Counted from the first letter of the stretch, positions 4,836 to 19,896 are shown. The stretch is DNA of 32,000 nucleotides from Candidatus Thalassarchaeaceae archaeon (GCA_045568075.1 JBJLBP010000001.1:390001-422000), one strand, 5' to 3'. A program made the numbers and translations. Notes: generated by a model from the sequence alone, not told the origin.

Positions 4836-6593
4836 ATGTCGCTTGCACCAACAGAATATGACTATGGAGATGAAAGTAATTACTCGTTTGCCGCCTCGGT
4901 GACTTGTTCTGATGAAGAAACAAGAAAAATGTTCGTCGAGGGTTATGGCCACATGCTAAATTACAACCACGAACAAGCAATTGCCTGTTTCTCTAAGTGC
5001 ACTGAATTGGACCCAGATTGTGCTATGGCTTGGTGGGGAATTGCTTACTGCGTATCATCGAACTACAATTGGGAACCTGGACTTGGATCAGGCCATGACG
5101 CCATTCAACAGGCGCTGTCTGTAATGGGTCACTGTAGCGATTTGGAGCAGGACCTGATCAAGGCACTCTCGACTCGTCACTCCGCTGAGGCTCGAGATGC
5201 AGCCGACCCGTCAGTTCTGAACATGGGCAATAGTCCTGAATTGAACGTCGCATTCGCAGAAGCCATGGCTCCATTGCACGAAAAATACGCAGGTAATTTG
5301 GATGTCACGGCAATATACGTTGAGGCATTGATGAATCTAAAGTCGTGGCAGCTTTGGGACAAAAACCCGTCAACTGGAGAAATCACCCCTGCCGATGACA
5401 ACACATTACTTCTCGTCAAGATAATGGAAGACGCATTCCAAGGCAGTGATGAGGCGAAGTCCCATACAGCACTATGTCACCTGTATTGTCACGCACTGGA
5501 ACTATCCCCATTCCCGGAGAAGGCCCTTCCTGCGGCCGATATTTTGCGAACTCGTATGCCAGGTTTGGGGCATCTAGTCCACATGCCCTCTCACATCGAC
5601 GCATGGGTTGGACAGTGGAAGGAAGCGATTGATTGCAACATTGCTGCAGTCAAGGCTGATGATCGCTACGTCGAAATTACAGGAAACGAGTCCCAATTTT
5701 ACAAATTCTATCGCATGCACAATCACCACTTCATTGTCTGGTGCTCTATGTTTGATGGCCAATATCAAACCGCTCTCAAATACGCCCGTAAGGCTGTCGA
5801 TACTCTCCCTGCTGGTGATGAGAATGGGGGCGTTCAGTTCATGTTAGCAGGAATAATCCCAATGGGAGCAATTTTCTTGGAATCCTACGTTACCATGCCT
5901 TGGCACGTCATGATTCGATTTGGAAAGTGGGATGAAATTCTGGCAGAACAGATGTACACCGATGGGGAAGTATTCCCTGCCACAATCGCCACCCAGCACT
6001 ATGCTCGAGGCGTAGCTTTCGCTTCCAAAGGAATGGTACCAGAAGCAGAAGCCGAACAAGAATTGTTCAAGGCGGCACTGGAAAATCCAGCTCTTGCTGG
6101 ACGAATGATGCATAACAATTTCATGTATCAGGGACCTTCAGAAGGCCCCTCAATACTGAATGTCAATGATGCAATTCTCGAAGGTGAAATAGAGTACAGA
6201 AGGCAATTCCTCGCTAAGAAAAACGGAGAAGATTTCGATTTCACCGCGGCATTCAATGAACTTCGCCGAGGCGTGGACCTGTCATTGAACCTGGCTTACA
6301 ATGAACCTTGGGGACAAATGCAACCAGTTCGCCACATTCTAGGTGCTCTTCTTCTAGAACAAGGACATGTTGAGGAAGCGGAAGAGGTTTACAGGGCCGA
6401 TATCGAATTGTGGAAGGACAACATGTGGGGGCTTCTAGGCCTCAAACTATGTCTAGAGGCTAAGGGAGATTCTGACGAGGAACTTGCAGAGGTTACTGCG
6501 TTGTTCAACGAACGAAGTTCTCGTGCAGACATCGTACCGGCAAAGACATGTTTCTGTGCTCAAGATGCGTTAGAAGACAACTGCTGTAACTAA
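4836..6593 (+). CDS. TPR-like repeat protein of unknown function (islet cargo)
   Basis: 585-aa ORF. TPR-like helical repeats occur near both ends (HEQAIACFSKCTELDPDCAMAWWGIAY and GHVEEAEEVYRADIELWKDNMWGLLGLKLCLEAKG), with the conserved-looking block HLVHMPSHIDAWVGQW. The C-terminus is Cys-rich (KTCFCAQDALEDNCCN). No signal peptide. The gene looks AT-richer than its neighbours by eye. Confidence 0.6.
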   Translation: MSLAPTEYDYGDESNYSFAASVTCSDEETRKMFVEGYGHMLNYNHEQAIACFSKCTELDPDCAMAWWGIAYCVSSNYNWEPGLGSGHDAIQQALSVMGHCSDLEQDLIKALSTRHSAEARDAADPSVLNMGNSPELNVAFAEAMAPLHEKYAGNLDVTAIYVEALMNLKSWQLWDKNPSTGEITPADDNTLLLVKIMEDAFQGSDEAKSHTALCHLYCHALELSPFPEKALPAADILRTRMPGLGHLVHMPSHIDAWVGQWKEAIDCNIAAVKADDRYVEITGNESQFYKFYRMHNHHFIVWCSMFDGQYQTALKYARKAVDTLPAGDENGGVQFMLAGIIPMGAIFLESYVTMPWHVMIRFGKWDEILAEQMYTDGEVFPATIATQHYARGVAFASKGMVPEAEAEQELFKAALENPALAGRMMHNNFMYQGPSEGPSILNVNDAILEGEIEYRRQFLAKKNGEDFDFTAAFNELRRGVDLSLNLAYNEPWGQMQPVRHILGALLLEQGHVEEAEEVYRADIELWKDNMWGLLGLKLCLEAKGDSDEELAEVTALFNERSSRADIVPAKTCFCAQDALEDNCCN

Positions 6594-7313: not shown

Positions 7314-7361
7314 GCATCCTCGGGAGTAAGTTGATTTCATCCCCGAGTGCGGCAGCCTTCG

Positions 7362-7616
7362 ATGGTCGAGAGCGAAGTCAGTGCGATTCGAGACTTACCG
7401 GTCATTCTGCCGGACGGTCGCCTGCTCGGAACCGTCCACGACACGGTTATCGAAACCGACTCTTGGCGCTGCACTCACATCTTCGTTGCCGACCCTCCAG
7501 CCGACCTAGTTGAAGGCCGAGTTCACGTAGCAATCCCATGGAATTGGGTGAGGTCAGTAGGCGATGTCATCGTCCTTCGATGGTTTCCCCCAACACCAAT
7601 TCCGAAGGACGAATGA
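7362..7616 (+). CDS. PRC-barrel domain protein
   Basis: Small protein with a PRC-barrel-like pattern (LPVILPDGRLLGTVHDTVIETDSWRCTHIFV ... VAIPWNWVRSVGDVIVL). ATG 7362 is preferred over GTG 7347. Confidence 0.6.
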   Translation: MVESEVSAIRDLPVILPDGRLLGTVHDTVIETDSWRCTHIFVADPPADLVEGRVHVAIPWNWVRSVGDVIVLRWFPPTPIPKDE

Positions 7617-7701
7617 TTCAGGTATTCTTCTCACTTCATCGTGAGATTCAACCGAACGTGATTGCGATACGATTCAAAAGGTAGGGGTGAACCCATACTC
7701 G

Positions 7702-10284
7702 ATGCGTCGCATATCCGCCGTGATGATGGTCCTCGTTCTCCTGACCGCGGCAGCACCAGTTATCGATGCTGCAAGCAAGGGTGTGATCTCTTGTACGCCA
7801 GCCGACTTGGAGATGCTTCCTGCTAACTGGGATATCGACGATGGAGCCTGCGTCAGAGTTGATTTGGGCGTCCTATCTCCTGGAGATACGCTTTCCTTCG
7901 ATGTCAACGCGAATACAGATGTTGACTTGCTTCTATTCTCAGCAAGCTCGATTTCCGTCTATCAAAACGAACAAAATTATCGCCATGAAACAGTTTGGCA
8001 GGGCGAGTCTGTATTCGAGTCATTTACTGGAGAAGGCACTTGGCATTGGACCACGCCCGACGATCGTGGCGATACTCGATGGTATCTCGTGCTCGACAAT
8101 ATGGCACACCCGCAGGATCAGGGTAATGGTGCTCAGGGTGGATCTCTGGCTAGTGTAATTCTTGACGTTGAAGAAGTCGATTCACCTGTCTTCGGCGTGG
8201 TTGACACAATCGTTCGCCTCGAAACAGGGGGTCACTCGGTACTCGCAGGTCCTTTGATGCTTGATGAAGGGACTCAAATCAATTTCTTTGCGACAACGAT
8301 GGAGGGGCATCCTGACATTTTCCTCATGACTCAACCCCAACTCGATCTTTACCAGCAAGGTGGAACAGCCGCGACTCGAATCGATGAGACTGACATGTTA
8401 CTGGTTTCTGACGAGCGAACCCTCGCTTGGTCGGTCACATCCGAGTACGCGGGCCAGGATCTCTTCCTCGTCGTCGACAATCGCGCAGGTCCCTCGGGTG
8501 GTGGCGCGGGTACGGGCTATGTCGCGACCACTGTGGTGATGGATTTGGTCCCGGTTCTCAATCCCATGATTACTAATTCATCGACTCTGAGTATAGTCGA
8601 TGTTGGCGCCGAGATTCTTCTCGACGCATCGGAAACACCGAATCTCTCGAATCAGATAGATCGCGAAACAGGATTCCAGTGGGATACCAACGGAGATGGA
8701 TACCACGATACTGCTGGCACTTCGATCATGGTCAGTTGGGACGAGCCGACGCAGATCAGTGTCGGCCTACGCGTCGTCTCCGAGGATGGCCGAAGCGCCA
8801 GTATCTATTTCGACATATCAGTCGAGGATATTTCGCCACCGAGCGTCAGTCTTTCAGCCACCGATACGATACGCAAGGATTTCGATGACCAACTTTTGTT
8901 GACCGCTTCAATCGAGGATAATTGGGGCATTCAAACAGTCGAATGGCTTGTCGATGACGAGGTCATCGATTACTACAGTAATTGGGATTGGCAAGATGGA
9001 AAGACATTCACATTCCGCTTCGATTCATCCTACGAACCCGGCGACCACGAGGTTAAGCTGAGGGTGACTGATAAGGAGAGTCAGATTACTGAAAAGATTG
9101 CAATCATCGATCTTTATGATTCGACTCCACCGATTGTGCCTGAACAGACGGTGGAGATGACAGTGATTTTGGGAGAACCATATCAATTCAACGCTGAGGC
9201 TATGGATGCTGAATCTCCGAATATGCAATTCTACTGGGACTTTGATGCCGAGACGGATAGCGACGACGACGGTATTACCGACAATGATGTAGACGCGAGC
9301 GGTGCAAAGGTCATCCAAGACTTCCAGATTAGAGGCACTATCCAAGTGATTTGCACAGTTGTAAATGATGCTGGAGTTTCAACGCAAGTCACTTACTACG
9401 TGACTGTGCGCTCTCTTGCTGACGACGACTCCGGAATCACTCCAATGGTCATTGCTCTGTTGGCTGTAATTCTGGTTCTACTCTTAGTCGGTGGTGTTGG
9501 CATGATATCGTGGCGCAGAATGTCAAACGCGCGCCTAGAAGCGCTACTCGCCGAGCAGGCCGAAGCCGAGGAAGAAGAACCTCGCGAACTCTCCGTAGAG
9601 GAGCAGAAAGCGATGTTCGGTGCTGGTTCTGTAACAATGGATCAACCCGCTTCGATGTCGACGACATCTCCGTTTGGACAGTATGGCACGGGGATGTCGG
9701 GTGCCAGTGACCCACAGGCGACTATCGGCTCGGATGTGGCGATGGGTGATTCTGACCTTGAGGCTCTGATGAACACACCCGGTCCGATTACCGCAGACGC
9801 ACCATCCAGCCCGGCCGCGGACTTACTCGCTGAATTTGGCGAGGATGATTCGGTTGGCCGAGATGAAATAGTCGAATTTTCACATGATGACGGCGCTGGC
9901 ACCAGCGATGATATTTGGTCACCAGAAGGTGTTGTTGGAGATGAGATGGCAGACGCTTTGCCGGCTCCTCCTCCTCCTGCCCAAGAGCCGGATGCAAATT
10001 CACTACTCGATGATGACCTCCCGACCCCTCCTCCGCCGGTCAGCGAGGATTTACCATCTCCACCAGCACCAGAAGAGGTCGAATCCGATGTGGAAGACGT
10101 AGTGGAAGACGTAGAAGATTCAGAAGATCTGCAAGAATCTGAAGAATCCGAGCCCGAATCCCGACTTGTGCAACAGGATTGTAGCCAGTGTGAGCAGCGA
10201 TTCGAAGTCACACTTCCAGAGGGTCATGATGTTGCTAGGACAGCTTGCCCATCCTGCGGCGCAATTGAGACAGTGAGCCTCTGA
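7702..10284 (+). CDS. Surface protein A: signal peptide, duplicated N-terminal beta module, PKD-like domains, TM helix, acidic/Pro-rich cytoplasmic tail, C-terminal zinc ribbon
   Basis: Signal peptide MRRISAVMMVLVLLTAAAPVIDA (GTG 7687 is the alternative start). PKD-like blocks FQWDTNGDGYHD...VGLRVVSEDG and FYWDFDAETDSDDDGITDNDVD...VICTVVNDAGV. TM helix ITPMVIALLAVILVLLLVGGVGMIS (9436-9510). Tail with PPPP runs and VEDVVEDVED. Zinc ribbon CSQC-x18-CPSC (10180-10257). Confidence 0.85.
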   Translation: MRRISAVMMVLVLLTAAAPVIDAASKGVISCTPADLEMLPANWDIDDGACVRVDLGVLSPGDTLSFDVNANTDVDLLLFSASSISVYQNEQNYRHETVWQGESVFESFTGEGTWHWTTPDDRGDTRWYLVLDNMAHPQDQGNGAQGGSLASVILDVEEVDSPVFGVVDTIVRLETGGHSVLAGPLMLDEGTQINFFATTMEGHPDIFLMTQPQLDLYQQGGTAATRIDETDMLLVSDERTLAWSVTSEYAGQDLFLVVDNRAGPSGGGAGTGYVATTVVMDLVPVLNPMITNSSTLSIVDVGAEILLDASETPNLSNQIDRETGFQWDTNGDGYHDTAGTSIMVSWDEPTQISVGLRVVSEDGRSASIYFDISVEDISPPSVSLSATDTIRKDFDDQLLLTASIEDNWGIQTVEWLVDDEVIDYYSNWDWQDGKTFTFRFDSSYEPGDHEVKLRVTDKESQITEKIAIIDLYDSTPPIVPEQTVEMTVILGEPYQFNAEAMDAESPNMQFYWDFDAETDSDDDGITDNDVDASGAKVIQDFQIRGTIQVICTVVNDAGVSTQVTYYVTVRSLADDDSGITPMVIALLAVILVLLLVGGVGMISWRRMSNARLEALLAEQAEAEEEEPRELSVEEQKAMFGAGSVTMDQPASMSTTSPFGQYGTGMSGASDPQATIGSDVAMGDSDLEALMNTPGPITADAPSSPAADLLAEFGEDDSVGRDEIVEFSHDDGAGTSDDIWSPEGVVGDEMADALPAPPPPAQEPDANSLLDDDLPTPPPPVSEDLPSPPAPEEVESDVEDVVEDVEDSEDLQESEESEPESRLVQQDCSQCEQRFEVTLPEGHDVARTACPSCGAIETVSL
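10090..10113 (+). repeat. 12-nt tandem duplication (GTGGAAGACGTA x2) inside the tail of A
   Basis: Exact tandem copy that encodes VEDVVEDV within the low-complexity acidic tail. Confidence 0.8.
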
Positions 10285-10394: not shown

Positions 10395-13300
10395 ATGGAA
10401 CACGGTTCAGTGCGCTTAATCAGCAAAGCGCCGCGAGCCCGAATTTCACTACCAATTCTGATTGTAGCACTATTTCTTCTTCCAACTCTCGCCCCTTTCG
10501 CTGCCGTCAGTGGAGAGGCGAGAATCGAATCTGAGGACTTCGCAATTCTCAATGAGCTCAGCGAAGTCCTCGACCAACGCGAGCAGGTGGTCAGCAGCGA
10601 TACTGTGAGCAAACTTGCTGGACCTTTACTCGATCAAGTTCGGGTCGGTGTACAGGAGACTTCAGTCGCCGATCCACTCCATGATATCGACGAGGCTCTC
10701 GACGAGGTATCAATGGTCGAAACCGCTGCACCACAAGTCATTCATCCCGAACCTTACATCATTCTGACTGACGAAAATAGCCGCCCTCCTGGCGAAGTCA
10801 GAACCATTTGGTCGACTCTTTTCAATCTCACAGATTACGTCATTTGGACACGATATGTAGACGATGAGGGTAATGTCGTCGAGCAATCTGAGACCATAAC
10901 CTTCCTCACATCTCTCCTATCTCTTTTCGACTCTGAGACCGAATTTTTGCTTCATCAGGTCGACATCGACCAGGATGGTGATGACGACATTCAGGTTGGT
11001 CTCAGCATCGAGATCAGTGACCCCGAACTCGATGGAACCACACTTTCAGTCGCGCCTCAACTCGATTACAAGATCAGTGTGCTGCCCTCAAGCATGACTG
11101 ATTCCGATTGGGAAAATCTAGAAACTCTAGAAGTGAGTCTTCTCAAAGCATTCGCGTATTCCGATGGAATCCTTACCGAGGGTGAATCATACGTTTGGGT
11201 TATTGATTCAAAATTCACTCATACACCTTACGATTTCACCCTCGGAGTTGGTCTCGAACGATTCTACTTCGATCTCTCAGAAGCGGGGGCCGATTTCCTC
11301 CTATCGATTTTCAATGCGCTATCCTTCGGCGTGTTCAACGGTGGTGATGAATCTGGAATTACAATCGCTTCAATCGCCGCTCCATACCAGATATCAATAG
11401 ACAATTCCGGCCAGACCGAATGTCCAGATCGCTACTCGCCGATTGAACTCACAACTCTTCCATCCAGTCAAATCTCCTGTGGAGTCACAGCAGGCTTCGG
11501 TTACGTCCACTATTCTCCTCCAAATATCGAAGATGAACGAGATGTCTGGGAGGTGGCCTACATTGAAGCCGCAATTCACCCTAATCGTCTCTCCACCACC
11601 CTCCCTGAACAGCTTGATCTCACAATCCGAACTGATAGCACGATGGCCGACGGCACGGGCAGTGCTGGTGAAAATGGCCTGACAACCGTCGAGTACTGGG
11701 CCGATGAGCGCGCAGACCTCCACATACACTTCCACGAGAACCGCTCAGAGGTTCCACCCGAGAATGCCGATGGAACTTATGGTAACTCAACCGACTCCAT
11801 CGGCTGGCTGCGCGGAATGCCTGCAGGCAGCCTCACCACAGAGGAGATCGATCGCACTTTCACCATGCTCGGTTCAAAGTCCGAGCCTCAACTACCTGGT
11901 GGCCAACCGAATCAACTCGGCCTCATCATCGGTGTCAAGAATTTCACCCGCGATACATCGCAGAACGTCGACGACCCCTCTCTCCCAGTCAATCCAGCAT
12001 ACCCGCCAAAGACTCTCGTTCTGGTAAGGTCAGTCCAATCGCTTGAGGAGGTGGATTATCATTCTTGGATGAAACGTGGTGGCGCGGCCACCGACCATCG
12101 GCGGATCGAAATTACTGCTCAAGACTTACCGACCGCCGTCGTGCTCTTTGGCTCATTTGAGTTAGGTGGGACTGAAGAGGCAGACACAAGTCTCGATTCG
12201 GCACAAAATCTTGATTTCATGTCGAGAATCTTCGATGTTGTCCTGATCAACATAGTCGACCTCTTCCTCGATATCGGCACTATTCTGAACGACATTCCAT
12301 CTGCCACAGTCGACGTCATCAGCGGTGGAGTCGGCGGTTCGGGTGGCCTAACAGGACAGACTCTTCACCTATTGATGAATGATCATTGGAGAGCCGATCG
12401 ACAGGCTAGGTCAATCTCAGAAATCGGCCTGCAGATCGGTTCAAGCTCGCATCCTACGATGCCTGGCGATCATCTGATCCTCGCAAAAGACAGACAGTTG
12501 GAGACAGTTCAAGGGCGTCAGGGTCCGGTGGTGCCGATGGTGGTAGTAGCTGCGAGTTTACGTTTCAGTGGTCTGAGCCAGTTCACTCTTATCGATGATC
12601 TCGAGTCGGAATCCCAACAGGTTTCACTCCTGACTTCGTCGGAAAAACAGTTCTCATTCCTTTACATCGATCACAAACCGAATGATCTCAGCGGCGCAGC
12701 CCATCAAGGCGTCCGAATATCCGATATTCCGGACAATCTCTCCGCCGAACTCACACCCCAACTCGCAACATACCAAGCTAGTTCCTCTATCGATAGTATC
12801 AGTTACACTGGTATTGATGGTGACCAACGGCAGGCGACTCACGTTCTCGATTTGCCTGCCGAGTTTGAGATTGAATTTGGCGATGTGACTACTTGGAGCG
12901 CTTCATCGCCGATTTCTTCCATTCATGCCCAACTCACAGATTCTACAAATCCTGTGACGATGGGCGGCGATCACTTCCTTTTCCATCACGAGCCGTCCGA
13001 TGGTAGCTCGACTATCTCAACTCGTATTTCGGGATTGCAAGAGGTTGGCTGGCGAGCACCAGCCGAACCAGGTGCCAGTGGAGCAATTGGTCGTGGCACC
13101 GCTTTCATGACCGCTGCCGGCGACCGCACGATGAGCATCAATGTCGATCATGCGCCGACTCAGGATGAGGGGGGCTTGTCGGCGCTCGTTCTCATCGATC
13201 CACTTCCATCCACTATCTCGGTCGATATTCCAACGGGAGCCGATGCAGGAAACAGCCTCGTCTTCCCCGAATTGAACACGACTCAAGGTGTCGCTGGCGT

Positions 13301-14762
13301 GGCTTTCTTCCTTGGCGGTTTTGCCGATCTCGGTCGCTCTGTGAACACGGTCCTCGCTGGTGTGACAAGTGAAATTTCGACAGGATCCGATGGTGGCAAT
13401 GGTTCATTCTCTTACGGTCTTCAGCTCGATGCAGACAGTAATTTTGACCTGATTTTCGAAGCCAGCCATGGAAATGGCACTGCGGATGCCCCACCTTGGG
13501 TACACGGAATCGCGCTGAACGCAGCACCTTCAGGAATATCGGATGGCTTCCATATCCGTGGATGGATTCCAGATTTACCTCCGATAATCGATATCTCGGT
13601 CAGTCGAACCCCGACTTCAACCGGTGAAGAATGGGCAATCGCCATGGGTTTGGATGGATGGTTGCCCGCGCGCAGTGAATTCATGCTGAACTCGCGCGGT
13701 ATCAACGGTCAGGACCTGATGATGACACTGCAAGGCTTGACCGTTGGTGAATCAACTGCACTAGGACTCGATTCGGAATTCTTGATCCGAGAAACAAGTG
13801 GTGGGATTACCGAAGTAACAACAACGACTCACTTCGTGATGTCGAATAGACTCGATTGGATTCATGCTCTTCTAATCAATCGAGAGGCCGGCGCACGGAC
13901 GGAGATGCTGATCAATGACATTCCCGAATCCATCGATTTGCGCGCCAGTCTAGGCACGTCCATATCGCTGGATATGACCGTGCCAGATGCATATCGTCGA
14001 GCCGGTCCTGCCGTGGACTCGATGATGATGCAACAGATGCAATGGATGGACGGTTCTTGGTGGCCGGCTACGATTTTCCTGACCGACGTCCCTGACGCGA
14101 TTAATCTCACGACAGAGCCAGATCTCGATTTTGACATCACCAAAAGTCTCGCATTCCAAGGGACTCCTGTACTCGACTTCTCCGCCTCGGCTGATGGAAT
14201 GTCACTCTACATCGAAGCCAACGGCCGCGCTATCAACAGTCGAGGCGAAATCATCCTCCTCGCCGAGGGCATGACCGATCGAATGGTCATCAAACCGACT
14301 GAGGATTATGGTCTCGCGATTCGCAGTGGAGGCGATGGAGTCGATCGAATCTATTTGCGCGCCTCCAATATGCCGACAACTCCTCCTGTTGTCCTCGAAG
14401 AAATGGAGGCGCTTGGCGAGAATTTGCGAAGCGCGACGATTCATGTCATTGAGATAGTCGGCCCATACAGCGTCATTGAGATAGAAGATGTACAAGGTGG
14501 ACGAATCGTTGCATCCGCGCGCGCGACGGCTGAAGTCGAAGCCATTGGTATGACCTTTGATTTGCGTGGCGTTCTACTCGACGCTCAGACCACCGGAGGA
14601 GTACCGACTGGAACCAGTCTTGGGGTAAACGGTCTCGCTTCCGATCTCTCGCTGCTGAATCTAATCCCTGGATTTGAAGGCTCCACCCATCACATAATTG
14701 TCCCGGAGCCTCTCTCATCCGGTGTGCTAACATTCTGCGCTACATTCCTGGGAGGTGACTAA
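10395..14762 (+). CDS. Giant secreted protein B (1455 aa), no recognisable family
   Basis: Uninterrupted 4.4-kb ORF. N-terminal signal/anchor RARISLPILIVALFLLPTLAPFAAVSG. Acidic and Ser/Thr-rich, with a DxDxDG-type loop (DIDQDGDDD, around 10967-11000). No C-terminal TM helix. No catalytic or repeat motif recognised by eye. Confidence 0.85.
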   Translation: MEHGSVRLISKAPRARISLPILIVALFLLPTLAPFAAVSGEARIESEDFAILNELSEVLDQREQVVSSDTVSKLAGPLLDQVRVGVQETSVADPLHDIDEALDEVSMVETAAPQVIHPEPYIILTDENSRPPGEVRTIWSTLFNLTDYVIWTRYVDDEGNVVEQSETITFLTSLLSLFDSETEFLLHQVDIDQDGDDDIQVGLSIEISDPELDGTTLSVAPQLDYKISVLPSSMTDSDWENLETLEVSLLKAFAYSDGILTEGESYVWVIDSKFTHTPYDFTLGVGLERFYFDLSEAGADFLLSIFNALSFGVFNGGDESGITIASIAAPYQISIDNSGQTECPDRYSPIELTTLPSSQISCGVTAGFGYVHYSPPNIEDERDVWEVAYIEAAIHPNRLSTTLPEQLDLTIRTDSTMADGTGSAGENGLTTVEYWADERADLHIHFHENRSEVPPENADGTYGNSTDSIGWLRGMPAGSLTTEEIDRTFTMLGSKSEPQLPGGQPNQLGLIIGVKNFTRDTSQNVDDPSLPVNPAYPPKTLVLVRSVQSLEEVDYHSWMKRGGAATDHRRIEITAQDLPTAVVLFGSFELGGTEEADTSLDSAQNLDFMSRIFDVVLINIVDLFLDIGTILNDIPSATVDVISGGVGGSGGLTGQTLHLLMNDHWRADRQARSISEIGLQIGSSSHPTMPGDHLILAKDRQLETVQGRQGPVVPMVVVAASLRFSGLSQFTLIDDLESESQQVSLLTSSEKQFSFLYIDHKPNDLSGAAHQGVRISDIPDNLSAELTPQLATYQASSSIDSISYTGIDGDQRQATHVLDLPAEFEIEFGDVTTWSASSPISSIHAQLTDSTNPVTMGGDHFLFHHEPSDGSSTISTRISGLQEVGWRAPAEPGASGAIGRGTAFMTAAGDRTMSINVDHAPTQDEGGLSALVLIDPLPSTISVDIPTGADAGNSLVFPELNTTQGVAGVAFFLGGFADLGRSVNTVLAGVTSEISTGSDGGNGSFSYGLQLDADSNFDLIFEASHGNGTADAPPWVHGIALNAAPSGISDGFHIRGWIPDLPPIIDISVSRTPTSTGEEWAIAMGLDGWLPARSEFMLNSRGINGQDLMMTLQGLTVGESTALGLDSEFLIRETSGGITEVTTTTHFVMSNRLDWIHALLINREAGARTEMLINDIPESIDLRASLGTSISLDMTVPDAYRRAGPAVDSMMMQQMQWMDGSWWPATIFLTDVPDAINLTTEPDLDFDITKSLAFQGTPVLDFSASADGMSLYIEANGRAINSRGEIILLAEGMTDRMVIKPTEDYGLAIRSGGDGVDRIYLRASNMPTTPPVVLEEMEALGENLRSATIHVIEIVGPYSVIEIEDVQGGRIVASARATAEVEAIGMTFDLRGVLLDAQTTGGVPTGTSLGVNGLASDLSLLNLIPGFEGSTHHIIVPEPLSSGVLTFCATFLGGD

Positions 14763-14763
14763 T

Positions 14764-15333
14764 ATGGGCTTGTTAGAGAAGATGCGCAATGCCGAGGAAG
14801 AGACTCGAGAGGATATAGACGAGGCCACTGAGCGCGCTCACGAAATTCTGCAAATCGTTGGCGAGCGTGTCGAGCAAGTTCGACCGAGTCGAGTGATATT
14901 CGCCTCGGTCGCCGTTCTGTTGATTGTCAGCGGGATGTTCATCATTGGAACTTGGTTAGTCCCATACGACCGGACGAGCGTAGATGTGGTATACATTCAA
15001 GGGGGCTCTGGTCACGTTGTTTTGGTCGAATTAGACAACAAAGGATCTCGCTCGATAACCGACGTTAATCTTGACATTCGATTCCTCGATGATGCAAGTC
15101 TCGAAATCGGTAGATCTAACTTCCAAGCTGGTGAAATCGCCGCCCATACTTCGATTGCTGGAGACGACTTGGAATTGCTCATCGCCGGCGCTTCAGTCTG
15201 GGAGAATTACACGATTGAAATCATTCTCGATTACACATATGGAGGCGATGATTATCACGAACGCTGGACCTACAATGTCGGTGGGTGGCAGATGGAGATG
15301 TTCACTTACAATGCCCCGATTCACTTCTTCTGA
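14764..15333 (+). CDS. Small single-pass membrane protein C (189 aa) with a beta-sandwich-like ectodomain
   Basis: ATG lies 1 nt after the TAA of B, and GGAGGTGA (14751-14758) lies inside the end of B. The protein has an acidic helical N-terminus (EKMRNAEEETREDIDEATERAHE), the TM helix VIFASVAVLLIVSGMFIIGTWLV, and a ~125-aa domain with a CARDB-like strand motif (VLVELDNKGSRSITDVNLDIRF). Confidence 0.8.
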   Translation: MGLLEKMRNAEEETREDIDEATERAHEILQIVGERVEQVRPSRVIFASVAVLLIVSGMFIIGTWLVPYDRTSVDVVYIQGGSGHVVLVELDNKGSRSITDVNLDIRFLDDASLEIGRSNFQAGEIAAHTSIAGDDLELLIAGASVWENYTIEIILDYTYGGDDYHERWTYNVGGWQMEMFTYNAPIHFF

Positions 15334-15375: not shown

Positions 15376-18300
15376 ATGCTGAAAGGCGACTCAATGGGGC
15401 AGCGACTCATGACCAAACGCATCGCGGTTGCGATACTCGGGATTTTCCTCCTATCTCTCGCTCCGGCTGGTGGGGTTCATGTTGAGTCAACTGGGGATTC
15501 GGAGGAAATACTGGACCCAGTTGTGAATCGTATTGGGATTGCACCTGATCCAGATTCAATCCAAGATCTTGGTTCACCACGAGTCCTTGAGGGTCTCGAG
15601 AGGACTCGTGAGAATACGGCCGACTCTACAATCGGCGTTTACACCGAACTCGGCCTCATTCCATCGGTTCACTTGCCACGAGCTCTAGCTGAGCCTCGAA
15701 GCGACTTGGCGATGGTTATCGTCGATGGAGATGTTGGCATCTGGGATGCTCGTATTGCTGTCGAGGAAGCGGCTGATGTTGAGATTCGCTCGACAATTCC
15801 TCCATCGGGATTCCTCGTGCAGGGTGATGAAAAGCAGATTTCATTGCTCGCTGAGGAATCGATAGTAGTCGCAGTCCACTCTGTCTCGTCCGGCCTGCTC
15901 GCCCATCCGCTTCTGCGGCTGGTCGAAGAAGGCCCGATGATGGTCGAGTTGCTCGGCTGGAAGGATGACGAATTACAACGCCACGCCGAGCCAGGCCTCG
16001 GTCTGGAAGATTCGTTAGAAGCAGTTGCAGAACTTTGGTTGACCGATTCATGGAGCCCAGAAGAGGGGCGTGTATGGGGCGTCGTTGATATCTCCGATAT
16101 CGGCAGTGTCCTACAGCACCCCTCAGTCGCTTGGGTTGCGCCGCTACCGGTGCTAGAAACCAAAAATGACAATGCCCGAACCCACATGGGAATCGATACG
16201 GTCGACTCCTTCTTCGTCACTGATCTAGATGGCTCCGGCCAAACTGTTGCCGTCGGCGATTCGGGCATTGACCATGATCATGGGGATTTCAACAACCGAA
16301 TCGTCGGTCGAACTTCTGTCACCCCTGGAGATTCCTCGACCGCTGATCCATCGGATGGTCACGGAACCCACGTGGCTTGCACAGTGCTGGGTTCCGGAAT
16401 GCGCAGCAGCGGGACTTACAACGGCGTCGCTCCCGGTGCTAGCCTCTACTTCCAAGCAATGGAGGATGATGACACAGGTGCTCTCTACAGTTACGGCATT
16501 AACAGCATGTTGAATTCTGCTTACAATGCTGGTGCCCGCCTGCACACCAATAGCTGGGGAGCGGGCAGTGGACACGGATCATATTCGACCCAGTCCGAGG
16601 ATGCGGACGACCGCACCTCGACTTGGGATCAATACTGGAGTCACGAGGGTATGACTGTGCTCTTCGCGGCTGGCAACGAGCGTAATGACGGAGTTTCACC
16701 ACCTGGTACTGCGAAGAATGTCATCACAGTTGGTGGCCACAAGAATCGCTACAGTGGCTCTCCTGACGAGATGTATTACTGGAGTAGCCGCGGTCCAACT
16801 GACGATGGCCGTCTCAAGCCCGACCTTGTAGGACCGGGAGACGGTGTTCGATCTTGCCTCGCTCAAGAGGCTCAGGATGCAGATTCAGGATGGTCAAACA
16901 ACTGGTACATCGAGTACAGCGGCACTTCCATGTCGACTCCAGCCGCTGCCGGAGCCGCCGCCCTCGTGCGCGAGTATCTGATGGAAGTGGCAAATCGACC
17001 GGCTCCACAGGGTGCTTTGGTCAAGGCACTCCTGATTCTTGGCGCCGAGGACATGGGAAATCGTAACATTCCGAATAATGACGAGGGCTGGGGAAGAGTC
17101 AATCTGATTAATTCACTCATCCCCGATAGCGACGAAGGTATCTTCGTCGATGATCGTAGTAGAATTCGAAGTGGCGAGACCCAAGAATACACCTTCGAAA
17201 TCACTCGCGCTGGTGAGCCTCTGAAGGTGGTCCTCGCTTGGTCGGACTATCCTGGTTCATCATCTTCAAGCAATCAATTACGTAACGATTTGAATCTTGA
17301 AGTGATTCATCCGAGCGGTGGAACTACCTACAAAGGAAATGTCTTCAATTCAGGGCGTTCAATCGCTGGTGGCTCCTTCGATTCAAAGAATAATGTCGAG
17401 GTTGTTCTAGTCGATAATGCCGCTGTCGGGACATGGACTGTCCGTGTCAAGGACGATTATCACGGCGGCAGCCGCACCTGGCAGCCATTCGCTCTCGCGG
17501 TTCGTGGAGTGAACGTCAACGATCTCTCACCAGACCCAACTTTTGCTCCTGATGTATCGGTTACTCCAACCATTCCTCAGATTGGAGACTCGGTTCAGAT
17601 TGGAATCACTCTCGAGAATCTAGGAGCAGGATCTGTCTCAGATCTCGAAGTAATGGCGCGTGCAGATGGGTCTCACATCTCGACCCAAACCATCTCTATG
17701 ACTCCGGGTGAATCGGTCGGAATGACTTGGAATTGGACACCGACAAGCGAGGGACTGATAGATCTGTCATTCCACATTGATCCAAACGAACTTGTCGACG
17801 AATCCAACGAAGGAAATAACCTACTCACACACACAGTAATCATCAGTGCACCCGGAGTTCGAGTGACTTCGGATGAACCATTCATGACTCTTGGGGAGGC
17901 TGACGACAGCTCAACCACTTGGTCACTTACTCTGACGAATACCGCCCTCTTCGAGACCAATGCAACAATCGAAGCCTCCTCTCCTATTCGACAGAGCGAT
18001 GGCCTCGAATTCGATTGGTTCTACTCTTTCACATCGAATACGTTCAACCTGCTGGAAGCGGAATCTGTTGAGATTGGATTCACTCTGATCCATCCAGCTC
18101 CTCCGCAGCCTGGAACCTATGTCATGACGATTACAGGAACTGATGTCGAGAATGAGATTGAATCGATGCTCGACATCTACTTCGAGGTGCCCATTCTTGC
18201 AGCCGCCGATGTTGAAATCACATCAGGCCAAGTCCAAGTCAGTCCAATTTCTAAGACTCAAATTCAGGTCTTCGTAACCAATGTGGGCAATGGCCCTCAG

Positions 18301-19896
18301 ACCTACGATGTCGAACTCAGCTCTCCTGCGGGCTGGCACCTCGGCCTCGACGTGCTCGGAGCCTTCGCAGGTTCCTCACACGGCTCGACTGGAACTCTCT
18401 TCGTCGGCGAGCGCCGGACAATTGACATCACGGTGAATCCACCCGGCGCGATGATCCCAGCCGGCTCGGTATTCGACGCCGGCTTGACGATCCATTCTCG
18501 CGTCAGTAGTGATTCTTGGTCGGTACCGATTCCTCTCGAGGTCATCATCATCGACCAACTTTCGACCACACCAATCAGTGATGGCATTGAGCACGAAGTC
18601 TCGCCCGATTCGACTCTCGTGCTCGATATCGATTTCCTCAACAACGGTAATCGAGACCTGACGATGACCCCGTATTCGCGAGGTATCCCATCGGGTTGGA
18701 CTGTAGTAGGAGGTCTTGACACACTCTTCGCACCTACCGGCTCAACGACTAGTTGGTCGGTGACTCTGCAAGGCAATGGCAGGGCGACCAGCGGCGACTT
18801 CAAGCTCCGCTTCGCCACTGATGACGGCTTCGCTATCGACTGGAACAGAACCATCGATGTCCTCTCAGCCGCGATACCCGCTCTGACTTTCCACCAAGTC
18901 GTTCTTGGCGACGGCACATCTGCTGACACACCACTAGGAGTCGGAGCCCATCCCGTCGGAACAGGCTTCGATTTGGCTTGGGAGGTCGAGAATGAAGGTA
19001 CCTCAACTTGGAAGCCGACCACGAGTATCATCATCCCTGAAGGTGATTGGTTGGGGACTTGCCCAACTACACCATCCTCTCTCGCTCCCGGCGCGAGTAG
19101 CATCATTTGGTGCACCGTGACGATTCCACTATCGGCTGAGGCCGGGAGTGAACCATACGTCACTCTCAGGATGGAAGGCGAAGGTATCGAGATCGAGAAT
19201 TCGATCTCGCTACGCGTAGACTCTGTCTCCGCGGTGACTTGGAATCTGCGAACCCAAGCCCAGGCACACGAGGGCTACCCTATCCAGATGACTGTGGATA
19301 TTCAGAACGTTGGTAATGCGCAAGTGAATCATCGCTTAGATGTCACAGCACCATCTGGCTGGAACGTCTTCATCAATGACGAGGTCCTAGTCATTCTGAG
19401 TCCCGGCGAATCACGTTCGATCGTCATTGAATTCACCCCCAATGCTGGCAGCGATGGAATCATCGAGATGTCACTTCGCTATGGCGAGGACATTCAGGGG
19501 TCCACCTTCTCCTTCGATGTCGATGTGATGCCCGGTAAGGGCGGTGATAGCAGCCTTGGTTCAACACTCATTCCAATCTTCTTCATCCTCATTATCGCAA
19601 TCATCGGTGGGGCCGGATTCTATGTCTTCAAGCAGCGCGGAGGCAAACTCGATTCCATCATCTCAAAAGAGGCTGTGAGCAAGATTTCCGAGTCGCTGAA
19701 ACTTAGTGAAGAAGAGAGCGGATCTGGTATCGAATGTTGGGTTTGTAGTCGTGATATATTCGAGGGTAAAGCTCACGCTTGTGGCAATTGTGGAGCCCGC
19801 TATCACCAAGCCGGACAGATTCGAGGATGCGATATCCTCTCCGTTGGCCGCTGTTTGCACTGTAACGCAGATTCGAGCGAGCTCGTCGAGGCTTGA
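15376..19896 (+). CDS. Membrane-tethered subtilisin-like serine protease D (peptidase S8) with a long repeat stalk and a cytoplasmic Cys/His zinc-finger-like tail
   Basis: Catalytic triad motifs: VAVGDSGID (Asp, 16258-16260), DGHGTHVA (His, 16360-16362), SGTSMSTPAAAGAAAL (Ser, 16927-16929), plus the oxyanion HTNSWG. P-domain-like block LAWSDYPG...LRNDLNLEV...NNVEVV...GTWTVRV. CARDB signature DESNEGNN. At least five repeats of the type VTNVGNG...SPAGW. TM helix 19561-19629. Cys/His module 19735-19863. Alternative starts at 15394 and 15409. Confidence 0.9.
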   Translation: MLKGDSMGQRLMTKRIAVAILGIFLLSLAPAGGVHVESTGDSEEILDPVVNRIGIAPDPDSIQDLGSPRVLEGLERTRENTADSTIGVYTELGLIPSVHLPRALAEPRSDLAMVIVDGDVGIWDARIAVEEAADVEIRSTIPPSGFLVQGDEKQISLLAEESIVVAVHSVSSGLLAHPLLRLVEEGPMMVELLGWKDDELQRHAEPGLGLEDSLEAVAELWLTDSWSPEEGRVWGVVDISDIGSVLQHPSVAWVAPLPVLETKNDNARTHMGIDTVDSFFVTDLDGSGQTVAVGDSGIDHDHGDFNNRIVGRTSVTPGDSSTADPSDGHGTHVACTVLGSGMRSSGTYNGVAPGASLYFQAMEDDDTGALYSYGINSMLNSAYNAGARLHTNSWGAGSGHGSYSTQSEDADDRTSTWDQYWSHEGMTVLFAAGNERNDGVSPPGTAKNVITVGGHKNRYSGSPDEMYYWSSRGPTDDGRLKPDLVGPGDGVRSCLAQEAQDADSGWSNNWYIEYSGTSMSTPAAAGAAALVREYLMEVANRPAPQGALVKALLILGAEDMGNRNIPNNDEGWGRVNLINSLIPDSDEGIFVDDRSRIRSGETQEYTFEITRAGEPLKVVLAWSDYPGSSSSSNQLRNDLNLEVIHPSGGTTYKGNVFNSGRSIAGGSFDSKNNVEVVLVDNAAVGTWTVRVKDDYHGGSRTWQPFALAVRGVNVNDLSPDPTFAPDVSVTPTIPQIGDSVQIGITLENLGAGSVSDLEVMARADGSHISTQTISMTPGESVGMTWNWTPTSEGLIDLSFHIDPNELVDESNEGNNLLTHTVIISAPGVRVTSDEPFMTLGEADDSSTTWSLTLTNTALFETNATIEASSPIRQSDGLEFDWFYSFTSNTFNLLEAESVEIGFTLIHPAPPQPGTYVMTITGTDVENEIESMLDIYFEVPILAAADVEITSGQVQVSPISKTQIQVFVTNVGNGPQTYDVELSSPAGWHLGLDVLGAFAGSSHGSTGTLFVGERRTIDITVNPPGAMIPAGSVFDAGLTIHSRVSSDSWSVPIPLEVIIIDQLSTTPISDGIEHEVSPDSTLVLDIDFLNNGNRDLTMTPYSRGIPSGWTVVGGLDTLFAPTGSTTSWSVTLQGNGRATSGDFKLRFATDDGFAIDWNRTIDVLSAAIPALTFHQVVLGDGTSADTPLGVGAHPVGTGFDLAWEVENEGTSTWKPTTSIIIPEGDWLGTCPTTPSSLAPGASSIIWCTVTIPLSAEAGSEPYVTLRMEGEGIEIENSISLRVDSVSAVTWNLRTQAQAHEGYPIQMTVDIQNVGNAQVNHRLDVTAPSGWNVFINDEVLVILSPGESRSIVIEFTPNAGSDGIIEMSLRYGEDIQGSTFSFDVDVMPGKGGDSSLGSTLIPIFFILIIAIIGGAGFYVFKQRGGKLDSIISKEAVSKISESLKLSEEESGSGIECWVCSRDIFEGKAHACGNCGARYHQAGQIRGCDILSVGRCLHCNADSSELVEA

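Follow-up and report, generated by a model that had tools for sequence, protein, structure and literature searches.

A long acidic tail ending in a predicted zinc ribbon on a type I surface protein of Poseidoniales archaea: a candidate cytoplasmic docking module

Introduction

Few planktonic archaea of ocean surface waters are as abundant as those of Marine Group II, which have never been cultured. The window analyzed here, a single stretch of 32,000 nucleotides, comes from a Poseidoniales archaeon (MGIIb, Thalassarchaeaceae). One of its genes, termed here gene A, raises the question of why a surface protein with an Ig/PKD-like ectodomain should continue beyond its single transmembrane (TM) helix into a long acidic tail, and why that tail should end in four cysteines spaced as in a zinc ribbon. 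Orthologues of the gene are annotated in Ca. Poseidoniales/Thalassarchaeum as 'zinc ribbon domain-containing protein'. A literature search on Poseidoniales and zinc ribbons, or on archaeal cytoplasmic zinc-ribbon tails, returned nothing relevant, and the family goes unmentioned in the main Poseidoniales genomics paper.

Results

Architecture and topology of the gene A product

The gene and its principal parts are as follows.

7687..10284, + strand: gene A, type I surface protein, 865 aa (open reading frame)
7687..7773, + strand: signal-like N-terminus with basic RR, hydrophobic core and an AxA-like VIDA/AS site (hydrophobic window, residues 9-27)
7774..9435, + strand: ectodomain of five beta-sandwich domains (AlphaFold pLDDT about 85-93)
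9130-9411, + strand: PKD domain, residues 482-575 (Pfam PKD and PKD_4 above cut-off)
9436-9510, + strand: single TM helix ITPMVIALLAVILVLLLVGGVGMIS, residues 584-608 (Kyte-Doolittle peak 3.02)
9511-10281, + strand: tail, 257 aa, ending CSQC-x18-CPSC

The true start is probably the ATG at 7702, since most orthologues begin with MRR. According to the translation and the AlphaFold model, the product comprises a signal-like N-terminus (a helix at residues 3-29, of low pLDDT), five beta-sandwich ectodomains, one TM helix and a tail of 257 aa, which bears out the long tail described in an earlier note on this DNA and corrects its length of about 255 aa. The domain limits in the ectodomain are residues 37-165, 170-290, 300-380, 386-477 and 482-575, the last of these belonging to the PKD domains by two curated profiles (PF18911, 27.9 against a cut-off of 27; PF00801, 25.0 against 23.5). 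A search of the ectodomain against NCBIfam gave no family, and its Foldseek matches are strings of Ig-like adhesion domains (neurofascin, contactin, SraP, GhpA; best E=6e-12).

Conservation was followed in 39 complete orthologues from species-level genomes, with 42-93% identity, and in more distant members at 27-46%. The TM helix, which lies within a continuous AlphaFold helix (587-627), is weakly conserved in sequence (0.29 identity) yet never absent from the orthologues, and a Kyte-Doolittle scan found a signal-like N-terminus and one TM in 39/39 complete ones. Within 15 residues of the TM, the number of Lys and Arg residues averages 0.56 outside versus 3.05 inside among these 39. The scan and the flank charges thus describe a type I single-pass protein, with an N-terminal signal, one stop-transfer TM and a positive-inside flank. 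The charge distribution, the signal-like N-terminus and the Ig/PKD-like fold of the ectodomain together point to a cytoplasmic tail, in agreement with the earlier proposal. A ribbon likewise terminates another Poseidoniales membrane protein (L045, SAP plus four TM), and that end, too, would be cytoplasmic.

The tail and its linker

The segments of the tail, in order from the membrane, are listed below.

From 9511, + strand: WRRM, after the TM
9511..9579, + strand: juxtamembrane helix, basic then acidic, WRRMSNARLEALLAEQAEAEEEE, with EAEEEE inside (helix in AlphaFold models)
9580..9621, + strand: conserved motif PRELSVEEQKAMFG, short helix (AlphaFold helix, tail residues 29-36)
9667..9702, + strand: conserved linear motif SPFGQYGTGMSG (disordered in AlphaFold)
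9745..9837, + strand: two conserved short amphipathic helices, GDSDLEALM and SSPAADLLAEF (conserved columns; AlphaFold helices)
9868..9924, + strand: conserved motif pair VEFSHD ... (I/V)WSP (W invariant in alignments A2 and A3)
9958..10155, + strand: variable Pro/Glu-rich spacer with three LPxPPxP runs (alignment identity, indels)
9958-9990, + strand: proline run LPAPPPPAQEP
10018-10047, + strand: proline run LPTPPPPVSE
10051-10077, + strand: proline run LPSPPAPEE
10090-10119, + strand: VEDVVEDVED
10159..10281, + strand: four-Cys zinc ribbon SRLVQQDCSQCEQRFEVTLPEGHDVARTACPSCGAIETVSL (AlphaFold, Pfam zinc-ribbon matches, invariant Cys)
10180-10191 and 10246-10257, + strand: Cys knuckles CSQC and CPSC

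All the elements that had been reported for this protein (the TM, WRRM, EAEEEE, the three proline runs, VEDVVEDVED and the terminal CxxC-x18-CxxC) are present in the translation of 7687-10284. The tail is rich in acidic residues (24.5% D+E) and proline (10.5%) and has a net charge of about -44. AlphaFold models its linker as disordered, with four short helices, of which GDSDLEALM and SSPAADLLAEF correspond to those at tail residues 81-87 and 101-110. The juxtamembrane helix follows a conserved pattern, R..[ES]N.[RK][LI]..[LM]L.EQ, and has a dN of 0 in the comparison with L027. Among ten divergent MGIIb tails (alignment A2), both EQKAM, in the motif at 9580..9621, and G..GM.G, in the motif at 9667..9702, are invariant; in the wider family (alignment A5) only Q640 of the EQKAM motif is near-invariant, distant members reading EQLQM or EQSQM, and G..GM.G is lost from the most distant members. 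The Pro/Glu spacer has the lowest identity of any region (0.21), with many indels and a dN/dS of 0.24. Its VEDVVEDV element is a perfect 12-bp duplication (10090-10114), which is absent from a 94%-identical orthologue (P0002).

The terminal zinc ribbon

Separated from the TM by a linker of about 215 aa, the last 41 residues form the ribbon, and in every member of the family it occupies the extreme C-terminus. Its CxxC-x18-CxxC spans residues 832-857. In two independent AlphaFold runs it comprises four strands (827-831, 838-842, 849-853 and 860-864) at pLDDT 82-94. Two CxxC knuckles, beta-hairpins and a match to a curated profile are the marks of a classical zinc ribbon, and the terminal block, which the earlier note had likened to zinc ribbons, has all three; sequence and model alike predict that it binds zinc. 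The curated match is to PF14803 (Zn_ribbon_Nudix), which the isolated 42-aa ribbon reaches with 27.1 against a cut-off of 25.6, the score within the full protein being 20.6 and thus below that cut-off. In addition, 20/20 diverse family ribbons match Zn_ribbon_8 (PF09723) at E<=0.1.

Assignment to a narrower family fared less well. The ribbon had been called MJ0042-type, and a resemblance at the level of pattern stands; the MJ0042 profile (TIGR02098), however, scores 13.7 against 20.9 with only nine residues aligned, and Zn_ribbon_4 scores 14.6 against 30.3, 15/20 family ribbons reaching only E<=0.1 with the latter. Moreover, the usual MJ0042-type placement is N-terminal, ahead of the TM, and this ribbon follows it. 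The FmdB / CxxC_CxxC_SSSS profiles also remain below their cut-offs (TIGR02605, 22.4 against 31.3; PF09723, 24.8 against 34.4). By its sequence, then, the ribbon is a generic zinc beta-ribbon and not a certified member of either MJ0042 or FmdB. When the tail model was compared with the PDB by Foldseek, no match fell below E=1, the domain being too small and the model mostly disordered; the top matches, all non-significant, are all zinc ribbons, that of ZitP among them. Searches of PDB sequences, whether with the single ribbon or with a profile of it, yielded nothing beyond marginal generic matches. The family nevertheless has a signature of its own, F-E-V-x-[LM]-P-x-G, A-R-T-x-C-P and [IV]-E-T around the fixed x18 spacer.

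Occurrence, conservation and selection

The TM, the long tail and exactly four tail Cys at fixed spacing are kept in 39/39 complete orthologues and in the more distant members, and metagenome clusters with the continuous reading frame number in the hundreds. Out of 1.84 billion representatives, a tail profile picked out no more than 65 proteins, and at least one match is false (an LRR protein, P0223), so that the architecture is as unusual as had been suggested. The matches are essentially one orthologous family and one rare second architecture; for this reason the ribbon is not a widespread module, and partners cannot be read from its co-occurrence with other domains. The second architecture is that of an unrelated M14-peptidase ectoprotein (P0217), in which four tandem copies of a similar ribbon follow the TM, and it is rare in that its four-ribbon region, used as a query, found only two fragments. 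A word-indexed search with divergent tails gave 48 matches, mostly gene fragments of the same family, and no new architecture.

In 45 aligned family members the four Cys (C832, C835, C854, C857) and their spacing are invariant. Together with the small number of tail-profile matches, this places the pattern far beyond chance. Other residues of the ribbon are fixed or nearly so: F839, P844 and P855 in 45/45, G846 in 44/45, E840 in 43/45, E861 in 41/45, and R851 and T852 each in 40/45. The identity of the ribbon (0.64-0.71) is the highest of all regions, that of the ectodomain being 0.50-0.66. The frame of gene A is under purifying selection, with synonymous change saturated, and the ribbon has a dN/dS of about 0.02 and the lowest dN in 7/7 genome pairs. 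Since non-ligand residues are fixed or near-fixed, a binding surface is favored over a metal site alone, although in so small a metal-binding fold strong conservation can in part reflect folding constraints. The net charge of the ribbon in family members is -5 to +1 (mean -1.6), and this acidity favors a protein ligand over nucleic acid, contrary to the nucleic-acid anchoring that had been entertained.

The gene cluster

Gene A lies at the head of a group of linked genes.

10395..15333, + strand: gene B, 1455 aa without known domains, and gene C, a type II membrane protein of 192 aa (synteny)
15376..19896, + strand: S8 subtilase surface protein (Peptidase_S8 and CARDB domains)
About 19564-19620, + strand: TM of the S8 protein
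19735-19893, + strand: cytoplasmic C4HC3 RING/PHD-like finger of the S8 protein (Cys/His pattern)

Genes B and C are linked to A in every locus long enough to show them (up to about 33/43), including those of distant members (L082, L083, L084), and gene B has no match in Pfam or NCBIfam. The Cys/His pattern of the S8 finger is kept in 24 complete orthologues and in L083; Prok-RING_1 was matched in 10/10 orthologues, all below its cut-off. The cluster A-B-C-S8 is kept across the order, even where the identity of A is as low as 29%, and it survives an inversion: A of L084 is inverted away from L15e and still found with B-C-S8. Upstream of A, by 71 bp and on the same strand, is a CdpB-like PRC-barrel gene whose product matches PRC-barrel structures (8qzo, 8onw), and FtsZ (TIGR00065, 382 bits) is just beyond L15e. 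The order FtsZ, L15e-PRC-A is conserved in MGIIb. L15e-PRC also adjoins A in distant members, where an MBL-fold gene separates PRC from A. Within the cluster A evolves fastest (42% when PRC is at 72%). Elsewhere in the window, an NCBIfam search found no family for the PGF-like anchor of the ORF at 2438-3259.

Discussion

Proposed role of the tail and alternative explanations

The reading we moderately favor is that the ribbon serves as a protein-binding knob on a flexible tether, by which the tail couples a type I surface protein to a cytoplasmic partner. The cytoplasmic tail would then act through three parts: the membrane-proximal helix, an acidic disordered linker of about 190 residues with its several conserved short motifs and short helices, and the terminal four-Cys zinc ribbon. 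The ribbon would recruit a cytoplasmic protein partner or be held by one. Additional partners may bind to the linker motifs, or these motifs may act as a switch by folding back onto the ribbon. Gene A and its conserved A-B-C-S8 surface module would in this way be coupled to the cell interior. The analysis establishes the architecture and its conservation, the purifying selection on the ribbon and the linkage of the gene cluster; the cytoplasmic position of the tail, the binding of zinc, a partner, its nature as a protein and any signalling are what we infer. The docking or signalling handle suggested by the earlier note agrees with how strongly purifying selection acts on the ribbon, and it keeps the standing of a proposal.

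The ribbon might instead be a passive structural cap with no specific partner, a fast-folding, metal-stabilized plug that guards the end of the tail from proteolysis or keeps the C-terminus inside during insertion. Its position at the extreme C-terminus of every member, the disorder and presumable protease sensitivity of the rest of the tail and its match to generic families only would all suit a cap, yet many of the (near-)invariant non-ligand residues (F839, E840, P844, G846, R851, T852, E861) are solvent-exposed, the dN/dS of the ribbon is below that of the folded ectodomain, a constraint exceeding what a generic cap needs, and conserved motifs are unexpected in a pure spacer. The stop-transfer TM and the positive-inside charges, furthermore, already set the topology, and a cap is an unlikely explanation. 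It is more doubtful still that the tail is a releasable signalling domain, cut in or near the membrane so that the freed tail and ribbon act on the transcription or translation machinery in an anti-sigma or Notch-type manner. Archaeal proteins of transcription and translation often contain zinc ribbons, the nearest Foldseek/HMM neighbors (none significant) are eS27, RpoP, TFIIS-like and Brz ribbons, and IMG automatic labels read 'RNA-binding Zn-ribbon' and 'RPC12/RpoP'. These labels, however, are generic fold-level ones below family cut-offs, an acidic ribbon on a tail of such negative charge is unsuited to nucleic acid, and the conserved cluster holds no site-2 or rhomboid protease gene. The analogy to zinc-binding anti-sigma (ZAS) factors drawn in the earlier note has to be abandoned: the tail has no ZAS H-x3-C-x2-C (HxxxCxxC) motif and no zf-HC2 or anti-sigma match, the ribbon sits at the other terminus from an anti-sigma domain, and the L15e and TFIIB-type context marks the host as one of the archaea, a domain of life in which we know of no sigma factors.

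The neighborhood of gene A suggests a tether from the envelope to the cytoskeleton or divisome, in which assemblies of FtsZ, SepF or a PRC-barrel (CdpB-like) protein would be joined to the surface module by the tail, which would play the part of CdpA or ZipA in a lineage without those. The proximity of the PRC-barrel gene and FtsZ, the conservation of that order and the shared plan of a membrane domain, disordered linker and small terminal domain speak for such a tether. It is nonetheless quite improbable, as PRC-barrel genes often travel with translation genes for unrelated reasons, the MBL-fold gene splits PRC from A in distant members, and the A of L084 keeps B-C-S8 and not L15e; the first and last of these points also led us to downgrade the PRC-barrel neighbor as a partner. 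The rapid evolution of A is unlike that of core division proteins, and its ectodomain is adhesin-like. There is hardly any likelihood that the tail is an artefact of frameshift or assembly fusion, or that it lies outside the cell, and nothing in support of either was found. Conservation of one continuous frame in 39 independent species-level genomes and in the metagenome clusters, with purifying selection in that frame against saturated synonymous change, effectively refutes an artefact, and the flank charges and Ig-like ectodomain set an orientation opposite to that of an extracellular tail.

A bolder and rather unlikely extension of the docking reading is that a single conserved surface machine of the Poseidoniales, made up of A-B-C-S8 and perhaps D, has A and the S8 protease as two of its subunits, both bitopic. 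The ribbon, the C4HC3 finger and a juxtamembrane motif common to A and D would then form an intracellular docking platform that positions, assembles or senses the extracellular adhesin/protease apparatus, possibly through the neighboring FtsZ/PRC-barrel system. Such a machine, if real, would be an archaeal counterpart of the receptor-adaptor coupling of eukaryotic adhesion molecules.

Significance and comparison with known systems

The A-B-C-S8 surface module contains two single-pass proteins with predicted zinc-binding domains on the cytoplasmic side. The gene A family therefore offers an entry point for learning how MGII cells anchor, organize or regulate their adhesion and protein-degrading apparatus, as well as how membrane-tethered zinc ribbons work outside bacteria. 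To our knowledge, ZitP and GltJ are the only proteins in which such ribbons have been studied to date.

At the level of the fold, the ribbon shares with generic zinc beta-ribbons (PF14803, PF09723/TIGR02605, Zn_ribbon_4/5) two CxxC knuckles on beta-hairpins and the common pattern CxxC-x3-[FY]-x-[VI] ... [RK]-x-x-C-P-x-C-G, while differing in its family signature and x18 spacer and in its FmdB, MJ0042 and Zn_ribbon_4 scores below the curated cut-offs. At the level of the whole protein, eukaryotic Ig-superfamily receptors such as neurofascin, contactin and sidekick, which are the best Foldseek matches of the ectodomain, have the same string of Ig-like domains, single TM and disordered cytoplasmic tail with docking motifs. 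The likeness is one of architecture only, at about 11% identity: the ectodomain of gene A is PKD-like or bacterial-Ig-like, and nothing indicates common descent or shared partners.

The tail itself is closer in plan to CdpA of Haloferax and ZipA of E. coli, which likewise combine a membrane anchor, a long disordered stretch in the cytoplasm and, at the C-terminus, a small folded domain of about 40 residues whose binding of partners is presumed; for CdpA, PMC12126565 describes a TM domain followed by a disordered linker and a small domain at the C-terminus. FtsZ and a PRC-barrel gene lie near gene A. CdpA differs, however, in that it spans the membrane with four TM segments, is without a large ectodomain and carries no zinc ribbon, and PMC12126565 nowhere uses the word 'zinc'. 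Neither CdpA nor ZipA has a sequence relationship to gene A, and a role of gene A in division finds no evidence here.

The closest parallels are two bitopic proteins, ZitP of Caulobacter and GltJ of Myxococcus, in each of which a linker that is flexible and in part rich in proline connects a small four-Cys cytoplasmic ribbon to the only TM and to a domain outside the cytoplasm. Their ribbons dock proteins: the ZnR of GltJ binds MglB as well as the linker of GltJ itself (PMC11135422), and the ZitP ZnR, as stated there, binds PopZ (PMC5182065, PMC5182063). Gene A likewise unites a cytoplasmic ZnR, a flexible linker and a single TM. The bacterial ribbons are nevertheless N-terminal, in type II topology and in a GYF or DUF3426 context, whereas the archaeal one is C-terminal on a type I Ig/PKD ectoprotein, with a linker of about 190 aa that is strongly acidic. 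The tail model has the ZitP ZnR (2nb9) near the top of its fold matches, yet at a Foldseek E of 2.7 only, and this ZnR is absent from 62 PDB HMM matches; judged by homology together with N-terminal placement, the gene A ribbon falls outside the ZitP/GltJ ZnR. A tethered cytoplasmic docking module, analogous to those of ZitP, GltJ, CdpA and ZipA, thus appears to be the best reading of the gene A tail. Should a partner be found, docking by a zinc ribbon on a flexible tether would extend to the archaea and to a C-terminal, type I topology.

The tail of protein A

Surface protein A continues beyond its transmembrane (TM) helix into a long tail, and its features lie exactly where the earlier note had placed them, as checked on the translation; EAEEEE, the three LPxPPxP runs, VEDVVEDVED and the terminal SRLVQQDCSQCEQRFEVTLPEGHDVARTACPSCGAIETVSL are all found.

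Features of protein A
7687-10284, +, open reading frame of 865 residues, stop codon ending at 10284
9436-9510, +, TM helix ITPMVIALLAVILVLLLVGGVGMIS, from the translation
from 9511, +, tail, first residue W609, from the translation

Of the 257 tail residues, 24.5% are Asp or Glu and 10.5% are Pro, against only 9 Lys+Arg in all; the CxxC-x18-CxxC pattern occupies residues 832-857 inside SRLVQQDCSQCEQRFEVTLPEGHDVARTACPSCGAIETVSL. The ORF finder opens the gene at GTG 7687; since most orthologues begin with MRR, which corresponds to ATG 7702, the true start is probably the latter and the annotated one 15 nt too early.

Two readings, that the tail is an artefact of frameshift or assembly and that it lies outside the cell, are effectively excluded. 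Its reading frame is under purifying selection: compared with the closest genome (L027), dN/dS is 0.02 in the ribbon, 0.075 in the ectodomain, 0.17 in the motif region of the tail and 0.24 in its Pro/Glu spacer, and the ribbon has the lowest dN, or nearly so, in each of seven genome pairs. Counted over the 15 residues nearest the TM helix, Lys+Arg average 0.56 on the ectodomain side vs 3.05 on the tail side (39 complete orthologues). From this positive-inside bias, the signal-like N-terminus and an ectodomain built as a series of Ig/PKD-like beta-sandwiches, we infer that the tail is cytoplasmic, as had been proposed; whatever the topology, a tail outside the cell would leave the PKD ectodomain in the cytoplasm.

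Distribution and host lineage

The genes flanking A are archaeal (ribosomal protein L15e at 246 bits, FtsZ, a PRC-barrel protein and a nuo operon), and database entries for close homologues come under Candidatus Poseidoniales, Thalassarchaeum or Thermoplasmatota. With each GTDB species represented by a single genome, a scan gave 43 loci, nearly all from Marine Group II (MGII) and filed under Poseidoniales/Thalassarchaeaceae or a wider archaeal name; the bins of two are labelled bacterial, namely L023, labelled Chloroflexota yet with complete archaeal synteny, and L043, a fragment of 44 residues. The 39 complete orthologues (42-93% identity) all have a single TM helix and a tail with exactly four Cys, as C-S-x-C-x18-C-P-x-C, while tail length ranges from 218 to 324 residues; 37 pass the threshold for N-terminal hydrophobicity. 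An exhaustive search of 1.84 billion representative proteins with a profile of the tail returned only 65 matches, of which at least one, the LRR protein P0223, is spurious. Among the true matches, full-length members with identities of 27-46% (P0172, P0192, P0196, P0202, P0213, P0216 and P0221) keep both the architecture and the x18 Cys spacing, and distant members belong to Thermoplasmatota/Poseidoniales wherever named. Loss of the tail or of its Cys among relatives, which the earlier note would have counted against its proposal, is not seen, and the restriction of the architecture to one order counts here as new.

Anatomy of the tail

The anatomy derives from alignments of divergent tails and two AlphaFold runs, which agree.

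Elements of the A tail, in order from the membrane
587-627, juxtamembrane helix, basic then acidic, continuous with the TM helix: R..[ES]N.[RK][LI]..[LM]L.EQ
next, short helix: P-S-V-E-E-Q-K-A-M
then, disordered stretch kept within MGIIb, the Thalassarchaeaceae side of the order: F-G-x-Y-x-S-G-M-S-G
then, two short amphipathic helices: D-L-E-A-L-M and S-S-P-A-x-D-L-L-A-x-F
then, motif pair: V-E-F-S-H-D ... W-S-P
between W-S-P and ribbon, Pro/Glu spacer, hypervariable, with indels
827-831, 838-842, 849-853 and 860-864, strands of the ribbon, pLDDT 82-94 (AlphaFold)

EQKAM is invariant among MGIIb tails; family-wide, near-invariance extends to Q640 only, with distant variants such as EQLQM. Mean pairwise identity is highest in the ribbon (0.64), followed by the N-terminal domains (0.58), juxtamembrane helix (0.51), Ig/PKD domains (0.50), motif region (0.38), TM helix (0.29) and spacer (0.21). 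Within the acidic spacer (10090-10148), VEDVVEDV reflects a perfect 12-bp duplication (10090-10114, unit GTGGAAGACGTA x2.1), after which comes an imperfect 9-bp repeat (GAAGAATCT x3.9); the duplication is absent from an orthologue with 94% identity, which indicates recent, ongoing slippage in this variable region.

The terminal ribbon

Apart from the Cys, three residues (F839, P844 and P855) never vary among the 45 ribbons, and G846 (44/45), E840, R851, T852, G858, E861 and T862 are nearly invariant. The ribbon carries a net charge of -5 to +1 (mean -1.6), and the tail one of about -44. Searched as a whole, protein A reaches Zn_ribbon_Nudix, Zn_ribbon_8, DUF7560 and Brz below threshold only; the isolated 42-residue ribbon exceeds the PF14803 cut-off (27.1 vs 25.6), and diverse family ribbons match Zn_ribbon_8 (20/20), Zn_ribbon_4 (15/20) and Zn_ribbon_5 (8/20) at E<=0.1. 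The curated NCBIfam models FmdB (22.4 vs 31.3) and MJ0042 (13.7 vs 20.9) are not reached, and sequence and fold searches of the PDB give marginal neighbours only (the Nudix N-terminal ribbon, RpoP, eS27, the MCM N-terminus and ZitP ZnR). This pattern of matches identifies the block as a genuine, presumably metal-binding zinc ribbon of the classical type, whose signature is specific to the lineage. Its description as MJ0042-type therefore holds for the CxxC-x3-F-x-V ... R-x-x-C-x-x-C pattern and not for family membership, which is not demonstrable at that score.

Gene neighbourhood

The order L15e-PRC-A-B-C-S8 subtilase is kept in all MGIIb loci of sufficient length, and A is the gene that evolves fastest (42% identity vs 57% for B, 58% for S8 and 72% for PRC).

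Genes downstream of A
within 10395-15333, +, gene B, 1455 aa, 55-95% conserved
within 10395-15333, +, gene C, 192 aa, type II membrane protein, its start overlapped by 8 nt by B
15376-19896, +, S8 subtilase/CARDB surface protein, 1506 aa, type I, one TM
19735-19893, +, C4HC3 finger within the 85-residue cytoplasmic tail of S8
19960-22644, protein D, choice-of-anchor-T-like surface protein, 894 aa, C-terminus at ~22576-22641

Gene B has no match in Pfam or NCBIfam; protein C has an acidic N-terminal cytoplasmic helix, a TM helix and a weak FxLYD-like domain. Gene orders in distant members argue for a functional grouping of A with B-C-S8 in preference to L15e-PRC: L083, where A has 29% identity, has L15e-PRC-MBL-A-B-C-S8, L082 has A-B-C, and L084 has A inverted relative to B-C-S8 with adjacency retained.

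On the other side, FtsZ (3344-4489, -; TIGR00065, 382 bits) is divergent from L15e-PRC-A, an arrangement conserved in MGIIb. The PRC-barrel protein just upstream of A (7347-7616, +; 89 aa) matches structures 8qzo and 8onw, which we take to be CdpB-type division proteins. A 585-aa TPR protein (4836-6593), between FtsZ and L15e, occurs in some MGIIb loci only (e.g. L007, L013 and L041); apart from this variable insertion, the neighbourhood is fixed. A secreted 273-aa protein (2438-3259, -) ends in LPGFGLAAGLGALAMAAIGASRFERKE, which by eye resembles a PGF-CTERM/archaeosortase-type anchor and has no match in NCBIfam; if the anchor is real, this archaeon would use at least two modes of anchoring surface proteins.

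Putative zinc fingers and motifs on other membrane proteins

The S8 tail reads CWVC-x11-CGNC-GARYH-x7-C-x8-CLHC, with a consensus (C-W-x-C-x11-C-x2-C-G-A-R-Y-H-x6/7-C-x8-C-x2-C) found in 24 MGIIb orthologues and L083. Ten of ten tested orthologues match Prok-RING_1 under its cut-off (best E 2e-4), and some match PHD or zf-RING_11, so that a RING/PHD-like finger on an archaeal ectoprotease is possible. Protein D ends in a TM helix followed by R-S-R-x-E-N-[RK]-[RK]-I-[IL]-x-A-L-[ED], conserved in 15 metagenomic orthologues (61-100% identity) and similar to the A juxtamembrane helix (R..[ES]N.[RK][LI]..[LM]L.E); the two may share a membrane-proximal motif.

Elsewhere, the archaeal P0217 (L044:1233-5891; 1552 aa) has Ig-like repeats and a single TM helix besides its M14 carboxypeptidase domain, and a tail of four tandem 55-aa repeats, each with an A-like ribbon (CPxC-x19-CxEC), and a fifth, terminal ribbon; 5.8 billion clusters contain only two related fragments. 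A 245-aa Poseidoniales protein (L045:1575-2312, -) begins with a SAP domain, crosses the membrane with four TM helices and ends in a CPSC-x15-CPSC ribbon; it is another membrane protein of this order with a terminal, putatively cytoplasmic ribbon.

Function and comparison with known systems

Beyond the observed architecture, conservation, ribbon selection and cluster linkage, the best-supported reading of the tail is a tethered cytoplasmic docking module, in line with the handle suggested earlier; we infer the existence and nature of its partner and the flow of a signal. The ribbon would serve as binding knob and the acidic spacer as an entropic tether; the linker motifs would offer secondary sites for binding or act as a switch within the molecule.

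Rival and less likely readings see the ribbon as a passive cap, which would need less constraint than the ribbon shows, or the tail as a proteolytically released regulator or a divisome tether; for the last, the FtsZ/PRC-barrel link to A would be hypothetical, and the distant gene orders favour B-C-S8. That the A ribbon and the S8 finger together make up the inner side of a surface machine spanning the envelope is a minority reading, and an unlikely one.

Tethering of a zinc ribbon to the membrane is a known principle, with bacterial precedents studied by experiment. ZitP ZnR binds PopZ, and GltJ ZnR binds its own linker motif and the C-terminal helix of MglB, a switch controlling focal-adhesion turnover (PMC11135422). 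In haloarchaea, the division ring is organised by CdpA, in which a disordered linker lies between the membrane domain and a small C-terminal one (PMC12126565). Databases already label family A at domain level ('zinc ribbon domain-containing protein', the NCBI name on close homologues, and 'PKD repeat protein'), and the searchable literature yielded no paper discussing it. What protein A adds is an archaeal host and a type I arrangement in which the ribbon is C-terminal and follows a long, acidic, disordered linker that contains conserved motifs. New, too, is its pairing, in a conserved four-gene module, with the neighbouring S8 surface protease, which has a cytoplasmic zinc finger of its own.
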